A stretch of 34,573 nucleotides of DNA, taken from an uncultured Candidatus Saccharibacteria bacterium. Its GTDB lineage: Bacteria > Patescibacteriota > Minisyncoccia > Phycocordibacterales > UBA5272. The DNA lies in NCBI GenBank assembly GCA_964391935.1, contig CAYMOA010000001.1, forward strand, positions 7,860-42,432, in the 5' to 3' direction. The position numbers were made by a program, and so were the translations under genes. Positions 10,666 to 33,958 of the stretch are shown piece by piece. Under the pieces are notes generated by a model. The model was not told the origin of the DNA. It did no database searches and worked only from the letters and a program-made list of their open reading frames with translations. Position 1 is the first letter of the stretch, and each line of letters starts with the position of its first letter.

Positions 10666-10710
10666 AAAATTATATTTTTGTTTTATCTGTTAATCTAGTC
10701 GCACTTTACT

Positions 10711-10736
10711 CCTCCTTGTAAAGGAGGCTGGGAGGA
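10711..10736 (+). repeat. hairpin-plus-G-tail element, copy B (divergent)
   Basis: cctcctt-gta-aaggagg followed by the tail ctgggagga. It sits in the rpsB-tsf spacer, immediately after the rpsB stop. Confidence 0.45.
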
Positions 10737-10742
10737 TTTGTC

Positions 10743-11932: not shown

Positions 11933-11965
11933 AAAACACCCCTACCCCTCTTTCGAAAAGAGGGG
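11933..11965 (-). repeat. hairpin-plus-G-tail element, copy C
   Basis: aaaacacccctacccctctttcgaaaagagggg. Its reverse complement, cccctcttttcgaaagaggggtaggggtgtttt, is nearly identical to copy D. C and D therefore form inverted terminal repeats. Confidence 0.7.
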
Positions 11966-12211
11966 TTTTCGAGTTCTAACATATTTTTCTAGTTCTAATT
12001 TAACTTGTAAAACATTGCTCTCAACAGTTTCATTTGTAAATCTTAATGTTTGGATACCATATTTGATAAAAAATAAGTTATCTCTTTCACATCTTTTTCT
12101 TTTTGTTTATTGTGTATTTCTCCATCTATTTCAATTATCAATTTTAATTTGCTGCAGTAAACGTTTGGTTGTTCCTTAAATCTCTCGCTCTTGCTACCAA
12201 ATTTGAGTCAT
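11942..12211 (-). pseudogene. decayed DUF559 / Vsr-like endonuclease-domain gene
   Basis: Minus-strand translation in three different frames gives MTQIW*, FKEQPNVYCSKLKLIIEIDGEIHNKQKEKDVKEITYFLS and GIQTLRFTNETVESNVLQVKLELEKYVRTRKPLFSKEG*. These match DUF559 blocks (LW..LR, FRRQ, DFYC..LKL.IE.DG..H, G..VLRF.N.EV). An in-frame stop, frameshifts and a deletion of the IG.YI.DF block are present. Confidence 0.6.
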
Positions 12212-12239
12212 ATCTAATAAAAATAGTTTCTTGAGATGT

Positions 12240-12274
12240 CCCCCTCTTTTTGAAAGAGGGGTTAGGGGTGTTTT
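12240..12274 (+). repeat. hairpin-plus-G-tail element, copy D
   Basis: ccccctctttttgaaagaggggttaggggtgtttt. A partial tail duplicate (ggtgttttca) follows at 12289-12300. Confidence 0.7.
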
Positions 12275-14720: not shown

Positions 14721-14835
14721 ACAGTAGGGTGAGAAAGCAGGAGCGAAATTCTGTTGTGAACGAAGTGTCTCAGAACGGGTGAAGCTGGTCGCGGAAAATT
14801 TTCTAGAAGAAAATTTATCTGTGACCTATCCCTGT
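14721..14835 (+). repeat. structured repeat, copy 2 (40-nt hairpin at 14787-14826)
   Basis: It has the same architecture as 2455-2560. The outer pairing is acag..ggg / ccctgt, the 5' block is gagaaagcaggagc, and the hairpin ggtcgcggaaaattttctagaagaaaatttatctgtgacc follows. It lies between tRNA-Lys and the TATAAT (14887-14892) of the next gene. Confidence 0.6.
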
Positions 14836-17683: not shown

Positions 17684-17720
17684 CCCCCTCTTTTTTAAAG
17701 AGGGAGCTGGGGGTGTTTTT
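17684..17720 (+). repeat. hairpin-plus-G-tail element, copy E
   Basis: ccccctcttttttaaagagggagctgggggtgttttt, located 17 nt after the secG stop. It probably doubles as a terminator. Confidence 0.65.
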
Positions 17721-17725
17721 AATTA

Positions 17726-19402
17726 GTGAACAATATGCAAGGTTTAAAAGAAAAAATAAAAGTTTTGTTTTCCCATTTTTTGTCTCCCAAAGAAATATTT
17801 TTGGTATTTTTTCTTTTGTTTTTATCTTTCTTTTTCTTTTTAAATTTTATTTATAAAAGTTCGACCTATTTTATGACAGATAGAATAGTTTACTCAGGTA
17901 GTGCTATAGAAGGTGTGATCGGTAGTCCAAAGGAAACCAACCCCTACAACTCGGTAACCCAAGTCGACAAAGACCTGAACACCATACTCTACTCTTCTCT
18001 TTTAGATAATAATTTACAGCCCAGACTTGCAGAAAAAGTAGAAGTAAGTAATGACAAAAGTATTTATAGAATAACGATGAGACCAGATATTTATTTTTCA
18101 AATGGTGACCCTATAACTCTCGACGATATTTTATACTCTCTCAACTATGTGCCCTTAGAAAAAAATTATTCTGTTGAGAAAACTTCTGATAATGTTTTGA
18201 CTTTCCAACTTAAAAAAAGTGACCCGATCTTTTTACAACAACTAACTTACCCCATTATCCAAAAAGATACTGTATTTGAAAATAATTTTTCTACTAAAAT
18301 GGTCACTTCTTCTTTTTTTAAAATTGCAGGTATCAACAAAGACCTAGACAGTAATGTTACATCTATTAGTCTAAACAGATTTAATAATGGCGAGGCCAAA
18401 CTCCCTTATTTCAAAAAATATAATTTGGTATATTTTAAAGACGAAGTAGAAGCGTATAATGCTTTTCAAAAAAAAGAAATTGACTTGCTCAGTGGGATAC
18501 CTGGAAGTACTATTTCTAAAATAACCGATGATACAAATATAAAATTTGAAGTTGCAGCACTTCCCAATAATTATGCCGTTTTTCTAAACCAAAATAAAAA
18601 TGAAGTTTTACAAAACAAAGCTCTGCGACAAGCCATGTCAAATATCGTAGACCGAGAAAGCTTGACCAATCAAGTCCTGGGAAGTTTCGGAACACCTATG
18701 AAAAACATATTGGGTGAAAAAGGTAGTCCAAAGACAGCTGAGGAAGTCCTTAGAACTTTGACATCTGGAAAAGACTCTGGCTTTTCTTTCAAAGATGGTG
18801 TATTATATGAGGGTACAAAGAAAGCTTCAACGAGTGAGAACAGGGCAATCAAAATCAAACTTACAACTATACAGAATACCGAGCTCGTAGAGACTGCCAA
18901 ATATTTACAAAATTCTTGGAAAAAAATTGGTATAGAAACTGATATAGATATTATCGATAGAAAAAATTTAAGTGATGTTGTAAAGGAAAGAGATTTCGAA
19001 GCCTTACTGTTCGGTTTTAGTATCAAAAGCGAAAAAGATTATTATTCTTTCTTTTCAAGTAAAGAGAGAGGTTATCCGAAGTTAAATATTTCTAATTATA
19101 CAAGTAGGCAAACAGATAAAATACTAGACGTACTCGCCGGAGACAATAATCAGGCCAGAGTTCTAGACTTGGTTAACCAATTGTCTGTAGAAATAGCTGA
19201 TGATAACCCAATAATTTTACTTTATAAACCACAATTTGTTTTCACTCATTTTGCAAACTTTCAAGTCAAATTACCAAAAACAATAAAAAGTGAAGAAGAG
19301 AGATATACTTACATCCAAGACTGGTACTCAGGTACAGAAAAAGTTTTTAATTTTTTTAATCAGTCAAAGTTTGTAGATAAACTCGATATTTTACTATATT
19401 AA
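17726..19402 (+). CDS. ABC-transporter substrate-binding protein, family 5 (peptide/nickel type)-like
   Basis: 558 aa with an N-terminal TM anchor. LQPRLAEKVEVSNDKSIYRITMRPDIYFSNGDPITLDDILYSL is the characteristic SBP_bac_5 N-lobe motif. No cognate permease or ATPase genes are adjacent. Confidence 0.65.
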   Translation: MNNMQGLKEKIKVLFSHFLSPKEIFLVFFLLFLSFFFFLNFIYKSSTYFMTDRIVYSGSAIEGVIGSPKETNPYNSVTQVDKDLNTILYSSLLDNNLQPRLAEKVEVSNDKSIYRITMRPDIYFSNGDPITLDDILYSLNYVPLEKNYSVEKTSDNVLTFQLKKSDPIFLQQLTYPIIQKDTVFENNFSTKMVTSSFFKIAGINKDLDSNVTSISLNRFNNGEAKLPYFKKYNLVYFKDEVEAYNAFQKKEIDLLSGIPGSTISKITDDTNIKFEVAALPNNYAVFLNQNKNEVLQNKALRQAMSNIVDRESLTNQVLGSFGTPMKNILGEKGSPKTAEEVLRTLTSGKDSGFSFKDGVLYEGTKKASTSENRAIKIKLTTIQNTELVETAKYLQNSWKKIGIETDIDIIDRKNLSDVVKERDFEALLFGFSIKSEKDYYSFFSSKERGYPKLNISNYTSRQTDKILDVLAGDNNQARVLDLVNQLSVEIADDNPIILLYKPQFVFTHFANFQVKLPKTIKSEEERYTYIQDWYSGTEKVFNFFNQSKFVDKLDILLY

Positions 19403-23888: not shown

Positions 23889-23950
23889 ATATCTTTTTGT
23901 TTCTTTTTGTATTCTTTCTTATTTTCTAGATACCTCTAGTTTTTCTATCT

Positions 23951-23974
23951 ACCCTAATCCCCGCAACGCGGGGA
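23951..23974 (-). repeat. hairpin-plus-G-tail element, copy F
   Basis: accctaa + tccccgc-aac-gcgggga; the reverse complement is tccccgcgttgcgggga + ttagggt. It is intergenic, after the stop of 24039..24419. Confidence 0.5.
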
Positions 23975-24038
23975 TAGAATAAATAAAAATATTTTTAATT
24001 TTAATTGACGACGCAATAGAGTTTATAACATTTCAAAA

Positions 24039-24454: not shown

Positions 24455-24727
24455 ATGGCAACCAAAAAAGCGGCCGGAACGGCCAAGAACCTCCGAGATA
24501 GTAAACCAAAATACCTTGGAGTTAAAAAATATCACGGGGAAACTGTACAACCAGGTGGGATAATCATCCGCCAACGTGGTACGGACTTCGTAGCAGGAGA
24601 CAACGTAGGTCAAGGTAAAGATCACACTCTCTACTCACTTATCGGTGGTAAAGTTGTATTTTCTACAAAAAGAAAAATGGCTTTTGATAACAAGATGCAC
24701 GTTAAAAAAGTTGTATCAGTTAAGTAA
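24455..24727 (+). CDS. rpmA: 50S ribosomal protein L27
   Basis: [59 protein letters not shown] is canonical L27. Confidence 0.92.
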
Positions 24728-24747: not shown

Positions 24748-24772
24748 ACCCCCTAAGGGGGTTATATTTTTT
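24748..24772 (+). terminator. rho-independent terminator of rpmA
   Basis: The hairpin accccc-taa-gggggt is followed by tatatttttt. Confidence 0.65.
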
Positions 24773-30448: not shown

Positions 30449-31288
30449 TTATCTTGCACTTGCTTTCAACACATTCTCGAATAGGCAGGCGACTACGAGA
30501 GGGCCCATGCAACCGGGAACTGGTGTGTAGTATGATGCAAGATCGAAACACTCTGGGTCAAAGTCACCACAAGCTACCTCTTTTCCTGACTCATCTTTTA
30601 CAAAAGAGCAGCCATAGTCTATCAATACACTTCCCTCTTTTATGAGTTCTTTTTTTATGAAAAACGGTTTGCCAACAGCAGAGATCACTACGTCGCAATC
30701 TTTTATTTTTTCTTCTTCCCCTTTTTTTATTATCTCGATTTCCCAATTATTTTTCTGTCTATTTTTTTCTAAATAATGTTTTATTGGTAGCCCTACCACC
30801 TGACCAAGTCCAACTATCCCGAATTTCGCACTACTTCCTCCCCTATTTATAGGGGAGGTTAGGTGGGGTTGAACAACTTCTAGAATTTTTTCCAAAGCCA
30901 AAACAATTGGGGCTTCAAAATTTCCATCATTTAAATTATCTACATCTTTTTCTTTTACTATTAAAGTCAGGATTTCTTCTGTGTTCTCTTTTAATTTTTC
31001 TGGAAGAGGCAACTGTACAATTACAGCATCGTTTTCTTTTTGTAAATTTAATAATTCTTCTTTTATTTTTTCTAAACTCGTTTGTTCAGACAAAATTAAA
31101 ATATTTACAACAAAGCCATAATTTTCCCCAAATTTCTTTTTTACTTTTATAAAAGATAGAGATGCAGGATCATTACCCACACATAAAATACCTAGAGAAG
31201 GTTTTTTGTTTTCTCCAAATTTTTCTAAAATTTCTTTCTTTAAAAATTCTCCTATTTCTCTATTTATCTTTTTTCCATCAATCAACAT
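30449..31288 (-). CDS. folD: bifunctional methylenetetrahydrofolate dehydrogenase/cyclohydrolase FolD, carrying an in-frame repeat insertion
   Basis: MLIDGKKI..., ILCVGNDPASLSFIKVKKK, VIVQLPLP, KDVDNL and TPVPGCMGPLVVACL are the FolD pattern. The segment QPHLTSPINRGGSS is encoded by hairpin element copy H. Confidence 0.88.
   Translation of the reverse strand: MLIDGKKINREIGEFLKKEILEKFGENKKPSLGILCVGNDPASLSFIKVKKKFGENYGFVVNILILSEQTSLEKIKEELLNLQKENDAVIVQLPLPEKLKENTEEILTLIVKEKDVDNLNDGNFEAPIVLALEKILEVVQPHLTSPINRGGSSAKFGIVGLGQVVGLPIKHYLEKNRQKNNWEIEIIKKGEEEKIKDCDVVISAVGKPFFIKKELIKEGSVLIDYGCSFVKDESGKEVACGDFDPECFDLASYYTPVPGCMGPLVVACLFENVLKASAR
30837..30868 (+). repeat. hairpin-plus-G-tail element, copy H (inside the folD CDS)
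   Basis: cctcccctat-tt-ataggggagg (10-bp arms) plus the tail ttaggtgggg. Read on the coding (minus) strand it gives PHLTSPINRGG. Confidence 0.7.
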
Positions 31289-32886: not shown

Positions 32887-33903
32887 TTAGTATATCATTT
32901 TTCTTAAAATGTACAGAAAATATCTTATTCTTTTTATTGGGATATCCACAAAGTCACCGTGGAATTTTGCAAATCCACCAAACCTTTTTTTAAAATTGGT
33001 CACCCCTTGTAAACTTTGTTTTCCATAACCATTTTCAAAAATACCGCCAAAATTATATATTTCACAACCCATTTTTTTAGAATGTTTTGTTGCTTCCCAT
33101 TGCATCAGATGGTTAAACCCAAGTTCTCTTTTTTCAGAAACACTTCCCGCAAAAACTAAGTTGGCAACTTTATCAGCAATTACAATCAAAGCTACAGACA
33201 TATATTTGTCCTCCAACTTTGTAAAAACTAAAAACTTTTTTATATCCTCTGAAGTTTGATTGTTTGCAAATATTTGTTTGTAATAATTTTCTTCATAAAG
33301 TGAAAAACCATCTCGCTCACTTGTCTCTTTTAAAAGATTCCAAAAATCTGAAAAATGACTTTCTAAATTCTCTTCTATAATTTCTATTTTAATATTTTCA
33401 CGTTCTGCTCGGCGTATAGAATATTTATTATCTTTATGTATTCTATTTAATAAATTTTCTTCTGTATCATTTAAGTTTAACCACCACTCTACTCGTGGTT
33501 GAAAAATCCCCTCTCTCGCAAAACTTTTTTTAGGAGGGTATATTTTTGTTTGAAGTGATGCAGAAAAAATATGGAACGTAGAGGATAAGGCACTATGTTC
33601 ATCTGCCTCGGAGTTACTTATTTTTTCTGCATCATATTTTTCTAATCTAACAAAAACACAATTTTCTTTTTTTGCGAGGTCTTTTAAATAATTTAAAATT
33701 TCTGTTTCTACCCCCCTTAATCCCCCCTTAGTAAGGGGGGAAACTAGAGCAGGCCCATAAGGTACATACAAAACTTTTCCAATTTTAAGATTTATAATTA
33801 AGCTAGCACAAACAGAAGAACCAAACTCTTTGTAAAAAGTTTTTTCTCCGACCGCTTCGTGCCAACTTAGGTATTCTCTTGTCTGGGTAAAAGGAATATT
33901 CAT
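32887..33903 (-). CDS. FemAB-family peptidoglycan peptide-bridge aminoacyltransferase, carrying an in-frame repeat insertion
   Basis: The pattern is FTQTREYLSWHEAVG..., YVPYGP..., FAGSVSEKRELGFNHLMQWEATKHSKKMGCEIYNFGGI. The start is moved to the ATG at 33903, 8 nt after TGATATAAT. The segment SPLTKGGLRGV is encoded by hairpin element copy I. Confidence 0.75.
   Translation of the reverse strand: MNIPFTQTREYLSWHEAVGEKTFYKEFGSSVCASLIINLKIGKVLYVPYGPALVSPLTKGGLRGVETEILNYLKDLAKKENCVFVRLEKYDAEKISNSEADEHSALSSTFHIFSASLQTKIYPPKKSFAREGIFQPRVEWWLNLNDTEENLLNRIHKDNKYSIRRAERENIKIEIIEENLESHFSDFWNLLKETSERDGFSLYEENYYKQIFANNQTSEDIKKFLVFTKLEDKYMSVALIVIADKVANLVFAGSVSEKRELGFNHLMQWEATKHSKKMGCEIYNFGGIFENGYGKQSLQGVTNFKKRFGGFAKFHGDFVDIPIKRIRYFLYILRKMIY
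33710..33740 (-). repeat. hairpin-plus-G-tail element, copy I (inside the FemAB CDS)
   Basis: On the plus strand: accccccttaa + tcccccctta-g-taagggggg. On the coding (minus) strand the order is hairpin then tail, which translates as SPLTKGGLRGV. Confidence 0.7.
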
Positions 33904-33958
33904 TTGCAAACATTATATCAGATTAAAAACTTTTAAACTGTAAAATACCACTAAAATC

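Follow-up and report, generated by a model that had tools for sequence, protein, structure and literature searches.

A predicted intrastrand-triplex repeat lies in frame in a FemAB-family gene and belongs to a dispersed family associated with DUF559 nuclease genes

In the window analyzed here, which is the whole stretch of 34,573 nt of DNA, a FemAB-family gene carries a short G/C-rich palindrome that leaves its reading frame open. What is this segment, how could it be tolerated within a coding sequence, and is it the DNA or the encoded peptide that is kept? The earlier note on this DNA had read it as an in-frame copy of a repeated element, which we could confirm, since 33 nt encode SPLTKGGLRGV (S57-V67), 11 codons that the closest orthologue lacks. 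The host gene and the parts of this copy, designated copy E, are located as follows.

32887-33909, minus strand: host gene, encoding a FemAB/FemX-family aminoacyl-tRNA-dependent peptidoglycan peptidyltransferase (assigned from Pfam, the 6snr match and the AlphaFold model)
33709-33741, minus strand: element copy E, architecture 9-3-9-3-9 with a perfect 9-bp stem, encoding S57-V67 of the FemAB-family protein
33741-33733, minus strand: pyrimidine arm, TCCCCCCTT
33732-33730, minus strand: loop, ACT
33729-33721, minus strand: purine arm, AAGGGGGGA
33720-33718, minus strand: linker, TTA
33717-33709, minus strand: G/T third-strand tail, AGGGGGGTA
33745-33750, minus strand: GCTCTA, one mismatch to the GCACTA box of other copies, encoding A54-L55

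Counted from TTG, the host ORF comprises 340 aa; the database form begins 2 codons later. It matched Pfam FemAB (PF02388) above threshold (E=4.8e-30) and, among solved FemX chains, 6snr by sequence (E=1e-31). The AlphaFold model (pLDDT 88.8, locally ~78-80 at the insert) adopted the FemX two-GNAT-domain fold, with a TM of 0.70 to both 6snr and 1ne9. In this structure prediction, insert residues 57-67 are situated between strand 44-49 and helix 61-81, and copy E is predicted to leave the FemX fold otherwise intact.

The element is 33 nt long (~42 nt with the 5' box), and its G+C content is 58%, compared to 31% for the host gene. No match to its 19-nt palindrome was expected by chance in 100 shuffles, which ruled out a chance palindrome. 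The DNA hairpin gave a z of -2.1 in ViennaRNA, which models hairpins only. We found no tRNA or known RNA family at the site, and Rfam returned no match. Ribosomal bypass and splicing of the insert were rejected, as the frame is open, with neither an in-frame stop nor a take-off/landing pair. Judging from the intact frame, the 11 additional residues are probably translated and would represent a tolerated by-product.

Seven copies of the family were found in the window. Apart from copy E and the gene enclosed by copies A and B, the features concerned are the following.

30449-31288, minus strand: folD, bifunctional methylene-THF dehydrogenase/cyclohydrolase, host of copy D
30837-30871, plus strand: copy D, CCTCCCCTAT tt ATAGGGGAGG tta GGTGGGGTTG, antisense within folD
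30828-30833: GCACTA box 5' of copy D
11934-11966, minus strand: copy A, ACCCCTCTTT tcg AAAGAGGGGT a GGGGTGTTT, left terminal repeat of a DUF559 cassette, tail outward
12241-12273, plus strand: copy B, CCCCTCTTT ttg AAAGAGGGG tta GGGGTGTTT, right terminal repeat of the DUF559 cassette, tail outward
17684-17718, plus strand: copy C, CCCCCTCTTT ttt AAAGAGGGAG ct GGGGGTGTTT, intergenic, its end 8 nt upstream of the GTG of an SBP_bac_5 gene
10711-10737, plus strand: copy J, CCTCCTT gta AAGGAGG ctg GGAGGAT, in the rpsB-tsf spacer, antisense to the operon
10701-10706: GCACTT box of copy J
23950-23975, minus strand: possible degenerate copy G, ATCCCCGC gtt GCGGGGAT ta GGGTAGAT, intergenic, with a weak tail match and uncertain membership

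The folD frame reads through copy D (as VVQPHLTSPINRGG), which encodes QPHLTSPINRGG in the FolD interdomain linker. Ortholog alignment of FemAB, done as for FolD (80% identical in L002), gave exactly 11 additional codons relative to L002 in both proteins, i.e., 33 nt in folD. As the earlier note had described, the two copies are opposite in orientation and both frames are open: on the coding strand, the order is hairpin and then tail in the FemAB gene, and tail and then hairpin in folD, where the element is on the plus strand and the gene on the minus strand. Copies D and E share their architecture but not their sequence (CCTCCCCTAT/ATAGGGGAGG/GGTGGGGTTG versus TCCCCCCTT/AAGGGGGGA/AGGGGGGTA), so that "same element" has to be read as same family. 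In most family copies a GCACTA box lies 2-4 nt 5' of the pyrimidine arm. The hairpin at 24748-24762 was set aside as an ordinary terminator outside the repeat family.

In copies A, B, C, D, E, and J, the blocks follow each other on one strand in the order pyrimidine arm, loop (typically 3 nt), purine arm, TTA-type linker, and G/T (or G/A) tail, and the tail mirrors the purine arm, with G opposite G and either T or A opposite A. The agreement with the mirrored arm was complete for copies E, A, and B (9/9 each), C (8/8), and J (7/7), and copy D matched at 8 of 10 positions, including all 6 G positions; in a control using the 5' flank, G.G matches never exceeded 4. All 9 positions of the copy E tail are compatible with G.G-C or T(A).A-T triplets. 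Over 13 distinct copies, the mean compatibility was 0.93 with the own tail versus 0.67 with shuffled tails, the former value being reached by none of 100,000 permutations (p<1e-5). A full tail accompanied 17 of the 108 hairpins with a G-rich purine arm in 1.63 Mb of loci, compared to 3 in the control; most of the 17, and nearly all of the long ones, belonged to the clade of the window. A model in which the tail repeats the purine arm in direct order fitted worse than the mirror model. The earlier note does not mention this mirror repeat, i.e., the triplex motif.

The ITxF definition of a class II motif comprises 6-15 triplets, at most 1 mismatch, and loops of 1-6 nt (PMC4666352). Copy E falls within these limits (9 triplets, 0 mismatches, loops of 3 and 3 nt), and sequence scoring, permutation, and triple-compensated changes all pointed to G.G-C and A/T.A-T triplets in which the third strand runs antiparallel to the purine strand. 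By its sequence architecture, the element can thus be classified as a putative class II intrastrand purine-motif triplex motif. A single strand would fold into a hairpin, whose major groove would take up the tail in antiparallel orientation, as a third strand bound by reverse-Hoogsteen pairing (G.G-C, T.A-T, A.A-T). For E. coli, a triplex was seen in vitro, and DMS footprinting in vivo gave no support for a stable one (PMC4666352).

We then compared the FemAB site across relatives. The closest orthologue (P0002/L002, ~70% aa identity) lacks exactly the 11 codons, with PYGPTQI followed directly by TKEI, corresponding to +33 nt in the window. At the same codon as copy E, L155 carries CCTCTCCTT tgt AAGGAGAGG ccg GGAGAGGTA, again 9-3-9-3-9, in which three triplet positions differ from copy E, each of them on all three strands, and its peptide TPLLCKERPGEV shares only 27% identical residues with that of the window. 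L001 has a near-identical peptide, with GCACTA at the codons where the window has GCTCTA; between these two, nucleotide identity was 88% in the element and 67% in the remainder of the gene, and third codon positions were identical at 10 of 11 codons of the element versus 50% in the remainder. Arm, complement, and tail covary across copies. Since in L155 this DNA architecture persists and encodes another peptide, it is the DNA that is conserved at the FemAB site, not the peptide, and the constraint on the family is probably structural and exerted at the DNA level. We found no FemAB relative keeping the peptide without the DNA element. The FemAB relatives in genome and metagenome collections were mostly distant Patescibacteria (≤37% identity) and lacked the element; close relatives were limited to the L005 and L066 lineages.

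At least four lineages from separate branches (the window, L001, L155, and L064) have an element at this site, which does not fit one simple recent insertion, and the occupation is patchy among close relatives, the element being absent from L002/P0003 and decayed in L064 and L066. The occupied site is compatible both with an old insertion that selection on the DNA has retained and with insertion recurring at one specific site. Further in-frame elements were found in a Mur ligase gene of L005 (+24 nt), a GH18 gene of L064 (+30 nt), and a second FemAB site in L138 (+36 nt). Relatives thus carry at least 8 in-frame copies across 5 gene families, and in five gene families of the Paceibacteria clade to which the window belongs, the net gain is a multiple of three each time. 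Copy E is in sense orientation to its host gene; copies in folD, L005, L064, and L138 are antisense. No target-site duplication was seen at copy E or D in comparison with L002, and the solo unit consists of a single hairpin plus tail; a MITE was rejected, as the solo unit has no terminal inverted repeats at both ends and no duplicated flank at E or D.

The earlier note had further suggested selection for translatability in several frames and strands. This was not supported, as the copies had on average 3.9 stop-free frames out of 6, versus 3.46 for 33-mers drawn at random from the window, and only 2 of the 6 frames are open in copy E and likewise in copy D. Because pyrimidine-only, purine-only, and G/T-only blocks cannot hold stops, stops arise only at the loop and linker, and survivorship is sufficient to account for the open frames. 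Its comparison with Rickettsia RPEs stands as a fair functional analogy, small repeats being tolerated in frame in both cases, although the element would itself fall into the BoxC/PIT class. RPEs are ~100-150 bp long, have long imperfect stems without a triplex tail, and are known only from Rickettsia. The likenesses are small palindromic repeats in an AT-rich reduced genome, in-frame persistence in genes, and added surface peptide segments; the differences are an element of 33 nt, a host that is a Candidatus Paceibacteria relative, and no likeness in sequence or size. The comparison would thus be an analogy of outcome only.

The family is dispersed to many nonorthologous sites, and element positions differ between genomes. 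In wastewater metagenomes, positions 12237-12274 (copy B) alone were common to other contigs, with a depth 2-8× that of the flanks, and positions 30835-30870 (copy D) alone were common to several other contigs of the same metagenomes with unlike flanks. For copy E, no excision or empty-site variant was seen in the FemAB-folD stretch in six wastewater runs (in contigs only, from which rare variants are dropped), and E-type sequence occurred in public assemblies in its FemAB context only.

The gene bracketed by copies A and B belongs to DUF559 (PF04480), a very large family of uncharacterized nucleases.

11975-12227, minus strand: degraded DUF559 (Vsr-like PD-(D/E)XK nuclease) gene enclosed by copies A and B; it carries frameshifts and has lost an internal segment

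Its ORF fragments include IIEIDGEIHNKQ and ARARDLRNNQT, and tblastn with the DUF559 protein of L002 gave three out-of-frame pieces with 60-77% identity. DUF559 cassettes are thus present in both L002 and the window, as a pseudogene in the latter. L142, L143, and L147 carry DUF559 in different gene neighborhoods, each with an element at or over the stop codon. The GCACTA box forms the last codons and the stop of the DUF559 genes in L002 and L142, so the end of the DUF559 gene falls within the element. In L143, the two flanking repeats share an unusual linker insertion.

The same association was observed outside Patescibacteria. The end of ycjD in E. coli is a TMECO pyrimidine arm with TGA in the loop position; a remnant of a second DUF559 3' end adjoins it, and the intact TMECO #9 is located ~170 nt downstream (Table 1 of PMC4666352). 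Ten DUF559 loci of other phyla contained 20 motifs in 11.2 kb, whereas 150 kb of control sequence, taken from three of the same replicons, contained none. In Deinococcus, an inverted motif pair brackets the DUF559 gene, 3 nt past the stop; no triplex motif was found at the Synechocystis and Azospirillum loci (2 of the 10). About 38% of E. coli genomes lack ycjD, and the TMECO part of the query still matches in them; strains without ycjD have the eefRABC efflux operon instead, and the ends of the ycjD cassette were unreadable from this comparison. Over these 6 + 10 loci, small DUF559 (YcjD-like, Vsr-fold) genes and the repeat family are physically linked, with inverted copies bracketing the gene, tails outward. 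Besides Patescibacteria, the link covers E. coli K-12 as well as replicons of Deinococcota, Cyanobacteria, and Alpha-, Beta-, and Gammaproteobacteria. The papers searched contained no report of a DUF559-repeat link.

How does this family compare to known repeats? BoxC/PIT (potential intrastrand triplex) repeats are the same as TMECOs and are class II intrastrand triplex motifs in the account of Hoyne et al. (2000) given by Holder et al. (2015; PMC4666352). The likeness extends to the order of pyrimidine arm, 3-6-nt loop, purine arm, 3-nt linker (mostly TTA), and G-rich reverse-Hoogsteen tail; to the size (~33-36 nt) and the G.G-C and T/A.A-T triplet logic; to genome-wide dispersal as solo copies and inverted pairs; and to a GCAC-containing box a few nt 5' of the pyrimidine arm and an adjacent DUF559 gene. 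In contrast, the arms found here contain more A/T and vary between copies, in an AT-rich Patescibacteria genome, and the TMECO consensus CCCTCNCCC N3-6 GGGNGAGGG N3 GGGNGAGGG had no match in the window, whereas the same pattern found E. coli TMECO #9. TMECOs are always intergenic (PMC4666352), whereas copies E and D are inside ORFs and about half of the copies seen here are in frame within genes. In addition, pairs in E. coli are tail-to-tail and the cassette pairs here tails-outward. The element would therefore have BoxC/PIT-class architecture and lie outside the BoxC/PIT/TMECO sequence family.

REPs are extragenic repeats of 20-40 nt found as singlets or inverted doublets, and a nuclease-type gene can be bracketed by inverted copies. 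The family described here likewise consists of structured 20-40-nt repeats built around a palindromic core and scattered either singly or in inverted pairs, with a bracketed nuclease-type gene. It differs in that this gene encodes a DUF559 Vsr-fold PD-(D/E)XK nuclease instead of an IS200/IS605-type Y1 HUH transposase and in that the repeat has a third-strand tail and also sits in frame in genes. The 5' end of the repeat carries no GTAG or CGTC tetranucleotide, the 5' box being GCAC(T/C)(A/T). The GC clusters and byp elements of yeast mitochondria are also G/C-rich hairpin mini-elements in an AT-rich genome, some of them in coding regions; however, they are organellar and the ribosome skips byp, whereas the frame here is open, with no take-off/landing codon pair.

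The inverted copies around DUF559 suggest a REP/RAYT-like system, in which DUF559 would mobilize the repeats. The DUF559 gene and its flanking triplex repeats would form the unit, and the nuclease might recognize the repeat when it is folded in single-stranded DNA. Copy E and other solo copies would be nonautonomous derivatives, often with the final 6-7 nt (GCACTA) of the nuclease gene still attached, and copies landing in essential genes would persist only if in frame, stop-free, and in permissive loops. We consider this explanation, i.e., dispersed triplex-motif repeats with DUF559 as a REP/RAYT-like unit and the FemAB copy as a tolerated solo derivative, to be on balance probable. We know of no transposition chemistry in PD-(D/E)XK nucleases. 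A broader version, which we propose tentatively and rate at somewhat short of an even chance, is that DUF559 nucleases are the cognate enzymes of BoxC/PIT-type repeats throughout bacteria, in a selfish or domesticated system recognizing hairpin plus third strand, whose 33-nt units colonize coding sequence in frame and are kept triplex competent by three-way compensatory evolution.

Several alternatives were weighed against this explanation. It is highly improbable that selection maintains SPLTKGGLRGV simply as a protein loop of this FemAB lineage, the palindrome being incidental: length after PYGP does vary in the family and the L001 peptide is near identical, but the nearest orthologues lack the peptide, L155 pairs the same DNA architecture with a dissimilar one, 10/11 silent positions preserve G/C-rich codons although the gene has 31% G+C, and the same architecture recurs in unrelated genes and intergenically. 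A role in RNA, with an mRNA hairpin slowing ribosomes, stabilizing the message, or terminating transcription, is very unlikely. The element is found both sense and antisense to its host genes, and antisense copies do not place the G/T tail in the mRNA; moreover, purine-motif triplexes are reported to be absent in RNA, PIT has no promoter or terminator activity (PMC4666352), and Rfam gave no match, even though a pyrimidine/purine hairpin could also form in RNA and copies A, B, C, and J are intergenic.

The repeats could instead be host-serving DNA signals, such as replication or recombination pause sites or binding sites of a chromosome organizer, with the FemAB copy useful at its position and DUF559 as a partner enzyme. 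Conservation of DNA with triple-compensated changes at one orthologous coding site, which indicates selection on DNA and not on peptide, would agree with such a role, as would the reported link of the E. coli motifs with local genome variability (PMC4666352). We nevertheless judge it unlikely, given the patchy presence of the element, its unconserved positions between genomes, and DUF559 cassettes in different neighborhoods, one of them a pseudogene, a pattern of mobile or decaying DNA. Finally, DUF559 might be a homing or hitch-hiking gene that inserts in or beside existing triplex repeats, like some IS at REP, with solo repeats spreading or arising otherwise. Association by itself gives no direction, the many E. 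coli genomes matching TMECO without ycjD would fit, and the second 3' remnant beside ycjD is what repeated insertion at one place predicts. However, the last codons and stop of DUF559 belong to the element, solo copies far from any DUF559 carry the GCACTA box corresponding to the end of the DUF559 frame, and the shared linker insertion in L143 is as in true terminal repeats, which makes this possibility rather unlikely.

To our knowledge, the BoxC/PIT repeats of E. coli, known since the 1990s, have had neither a function nor a partner protein. The link of DUF559 with BoxC/PIT, from Patescibacteria to E. coli, Deinococcus, and cyanobacteria, offers a testable role for both, and E. coli ycjD with its TMECOs is a ready experimental system. 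The FemAB site, with three positions changed on all three strands while the peptide changed freely, would provide natural evidence that triplex-forming potential is preserved in coding sequence, and this evidence, which is of the covariation type, would speak for a non-B DNA structure in vivo. For annotation of candidate phyla, the repeat family may explain short G/C-rich insertions, rich in Pro, Gly, and Lys, in otherwise conserved enzymes. The exact 19-mer of copy E also had 7 matches in viral contigs, at most a few of them with a plausible pyrimidine arm.

The flagged 33 nt of copy E in the FemAB-family gene indeed lie in frame and encode SPLTKGGLRGV (residues S57-V67 of the protein), and the folD copy reported by the earlier note as opposite in orientation and also encoding was confirmed to lie antisense to its host gene. 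Listing of all G/C-run hairpins of the window identified seven related copies, including one weak candidate (G).

33709-33741, minus strand: copy E, reading TCCCCCCTT ACT AAGGGGGGA TTA AGGGGGGTA
32887..33909, minus strand: FemAB host ORF (Pfam FemAB, E=4.8e-30; solved FemX chain 6snr, E=1e-31)
30837-30871, plus strand: copy D, antisense in folD, encoding ..QPHLTSPINRGG..
11934-11966, minus strand: copy A
12241-12273, plus strand: copy B
17684-17718, plus strand: copy C
10711-10737, plus strand: copy J
23950-23975, minus strand: copy G, weak candidate

The palindrome of copy E is not predicted by chance, and its 33 nt have a G+C content of 58% versus 31% for the FemAB gene. The AlphaFold model of the host ORF (pLDDT 88.8) has the FemX fold, with a TM score of 0.70 to both 6snr and 1ne9. 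An alignment of 36 FemAB homologues placed the copy E region in a variable loop after the invariant PYGP. The closest orthologue, P0002 from locus L002, reads PYGPTQI/TKEI versus PYGPALV[SPLTKGGLRGV]ETEI in the window, a net gain of exactly 33 nt. The FolD protein of L002 (80% identical) lacks 11 interdomain-linker residues present in the window, again a difference of 33 nt. The proposed in-frame insertion was largely right. In the model, strand 44-49 and helix 61-81 flank the copy E insert, whose local confidence (~78-80) is below that of its neighbours, consistent with a tolerated surface addition. From the intact frame, the FemAB protein with its insert would be made and active. The same gene contains a second inverted repeat at 33556-33634, A/T-rich with 29-nt arms (83% complementary), which overlaps an alignment-variable, low-confidence protein segment (residues ~92-118; pLDDT <50 at 98-119) and may be another in-frame structured insertion. 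Close to the 3' end of folD, L002 (11942-11963; also L003 and L004) carries a perfect 10-bp G/C-containing palindrome, TGTAGACCCC cg GGGGTCTACA, without a triplex tail.

The copies share an architecture, not a sequence: a C/T arm, a loop of 2-3 nt, a complementary G/A arm, a mostly-TTA linker and a G-rich tail. The tail mirrors the purine arm, with A retained or swapped for T (AAAGAGGGG to GGGGTGTTT, AAGGGAGG to GGAGGGAT and ATAGGGGAGG to GGTGGGGTTG). Judged from sequence, the blocks are arranged as in an intramolecular purine-motif triplex: the tail would fold back antiparallel to the purine strand and form G.G-C and T.A-T or A.A-T triplets. The tail matched the mirrored arm at 9/9 positions in E, A and B, 8/8 in C, 7/7 in J and 8/10 in D (G positions, 6/6); the 5'-flank control gave at most four G.G matches. 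Treating the tail as a direct repeat of the purine arm gave a worse fit than the mirror model. Among 108 G-rich purine-arm hairpins in 1.63 Mb of Patescibacteria loci, 17 had such a tail compared to 3 in the control, and most tailed hairpins, including nearly all long ones, came from the clade of the window. Across 13 distinct copies, compatibility was 0.93 with a copy's own tail versus 0.67 with the tails of other copies, a level reached by none of 100,000 permutations. In copy C, the tail (GGGGGTG) stops 8 nt short of the GTG that starts the SBP_bac_5 gene (17709-17728) and could double as the ribosome-binding site of this gene.

This is exactly the architecture of the class II intrastrand triplex motif defined by Holder et al. 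2015 (PMC4666352). The E. coli BoxC/PIT/TMECO repeats (CCCTCNCCC N3-6 GGGNGAGGG N3 GGGNGAGGG, with a TTA linker in most) were seen to form a triplex in vitro and are associated with local genome variability; their function is not known and a mobile-element link was not found (PMC4666352). The window copies fit the structural definition of class II but do not match the E. coli consensus, and two of them are intragenic, whereas E. coli K-12 TMECOs are intergenic without exception (PMC4666352). The earlier note's view of a repeated in-frame element stands, but 'BoxC/PIT-class triplex repeat' is a better description of it than 'RPE-like palindrome'.

Additional in-frame copies were found in relatives.

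L005, Mur ligase gene: +24 nt
L005, ComF-like gene
L064, GH18 gene: +30 nt
L138, second FemAB site: +36 nt

All measured net changes were multiples of three, as required in live genes; the core lengths (27-35 nt) were not. The copies averaged 3.9 stop-free frames of six versus 3.46 for random 33-mers, and E and D had only two each. Thus, the element is not specially translatable, and the selection for translatability that had been suggested is unneeded: block composition, with stops only at loop or linker, together with survivorship explains the open frames. In-frame intragenic copies of BoxC/PIT-class repeats are new. We aligned wastewater-metagenome contigs onto the window. Several other contigs, whose flanks were unlike those of the window, contained D-type and B-type sequence, with a depth 2-8 times that of the surroundings; in several cases the copy was preceded by ..GCACT. 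In these contigs, we saw neither E-type sequence outside the FemAB context nor any contig skipping copy E.

The FemAB site was then compared among relatives. Locus L001 (P0006, ~62% amino acid identity) carries TCCCCCTTTGATAAGGGGGGATTAAGGGGGGTG at the same codons as copy E; the element is 88% identical, with 10/11 third codon positions shared, versus 67% and 50% for the rest of the gene. At the same codons, L155 (P0007) has an intact 9-3-9-3-9 element of differing sequence, CCTCTCCTT tgt AAGGAGAGG ccg GGAGAGGTA, encoding TPLLCKERPGEV. Three triplet positions differ from copy E, each changed jointly on pyrimidine arm, purine arm and tail, while the peptides share 27% identical residues. Such triple-compensated evolution at an orthologous coding site is new. 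In L064, an L155-type arm and tail remain but the purine arm is disrupted; the L066 copy has decayed, and L002, L138, L139 and L005 lack the element at this site. These patterns fit an old insertion, repeatedly lost or decayed, whose survivors were held triplex-competent by DNA-level selection. They fit also insertions or conversions that recurred at a single position, three codons past the conserved PYGP; in a rough neighbour-joining tree, the window clusters with the element-free P0002 and P0003, and P0006 splits deeper. Under either history, what is conserved is the architecture of the DNA rather than the peptide.

In the window, copies A and B are inverted, tails outward, around a degraded DUF559 gene, and L002 has an intact 116-aa DUF559 gene bracketed likewise between sigma-70 and ftsH, which lie side by side in five syntenic relatives. 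The closest homologues of this gene (L142, L143 and L147) are found in three further gene neighbourhoods; the element sits at the stop codon in every case, and L147 also has an inverted copy upstream. Their 3' ends take two forms: ..TTG CAC TAA followed by the pyrimidine arm, and CCC TTT ACT TAA AGGGGG with the stop in the loop. Most solo copies (D, E with one mismatch, J, L001, both L005 copies and the metagenome copies) are preceded, at a distance of 2-4 nt, by a GCACTA box; since some of these DUF559 genes end in ..TTG CAC TAA, this box is the end of the DUF559 reading frame. In both flanking repeats of L143 (2870-3000 and 3355-3420), purine arm and tail are separated by a similar insertion of 23-27 nt (ACACGAGC..GCGAGTG), indicating that the two ends are copies of each other. 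The L002 and L147 DUF559 proteins (P0056 and P0060, 116-124 aa) bear the JGI name 'leucyl-tRNA synthetase', which suggests that some reference LeuRS genes bear a DUF559 domain or insertion.

The E. coli K-12 DUF559 gene, ycjD, ends in ..CGG TCA CCC TCT CCC TGA, which is the TMECO pyrimidine arm with the stop codon at the loop position. An intact TMECO (#9) lies ~170 nt downstream on the same strand; we estimate the chance of a TMECO within 200 nt of a given gene at ~0.002 (18 sites, 4.6 Mb). Between the two (L148, 2290-2420), there is a remnant of a second DUF559 3' end, with GAAAGGGTTAGGGG: 23 nt that exactly duplicate the 3' coding end of ycjD (GGAGACGGTGCTGGAGAATATTC), and then a degenerate triplex motif. 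TMECO 5' flanks have ..GCaCaatCGGTC in common. Among ten diverse DUF559 loci of other phyla, located on plasmids and secondary replicons, class II motifs were detected by the scanner in six (Picosynechococcus, Pseudanabaena, Neisseria, Deinococcus, Klebsiella and Photobacterium) and by eye in two more (Sinorhizobium and Sphingomonas), with 20 motifs in 11.2 kb versus 0 in a 150-kb control from three of the same replicons. The Deinococcus gene lies inside an inverted pair, tails outward, starting 3 nt past the stop. This association across phyla is new; our literature search found no paper connecting DUF559 or ycjD with these repeats.

Beyond the observed architecture, covariation, dispersal, in-frame persistence and DUF559 association, we infer that a DUF559 gene and two triplex repeats would form a REP/RAYT-like unit. 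On single-stranded DNA, the nuclease would recognise the folded repeat close to the GCAC box, and solo units of 33-42 nt would be non-autonomous derivatives. The copies in FemAB and folD would have landed in frame in permissive loops and survived there, being translated as harmless segments rich in Pro, Leu, Lys and Gly. The direction could also be reversed, with DUF559 targeting pre-existing repeats. About 38% of E. coli genomes lack ycjD yet still match the query in its TMECO part, a caveat to the mobilising unit. A 2026 paper found ycjD in place of the eefRABC operon at a variable E. coli locus.

Other repeats were also observed. The hairpin ACCCCC taa GGGGGT with a T-run (24748-24762), shortly after a 90-aa ORF (24455..24727; from the comparison with L002, likely L27), resembles an ordinary intrinsic terminator and was not retained in the family. 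A 40-nt repeat with inverted symmetry of its own, unrelated to the triplex family (GGTCGCGGAAAATTTTCTnnAAGAAAATTTATCTGTGACC; 95% identical), occurs at 2512-2551, ~30 nt upstream of a TfoX_N gene (2583), and at 14787-14826, directly past tRNA-Lys at the start of ORF 14779. On a Candidatus Taylorbacteria contig (L017, MHSK01000025.1, 2231-5275), two other kinds of G/C-rich hairpin repeat occur in several copies inside a 3-kb stretch, CTTCCCCTCT..AGAGGGGAAG then GAAGAGGGGA, and CCTCCTTT atg AAAGGAGG; since their purine tails appear direct, not mirrored, they may belong to a different repeat family.
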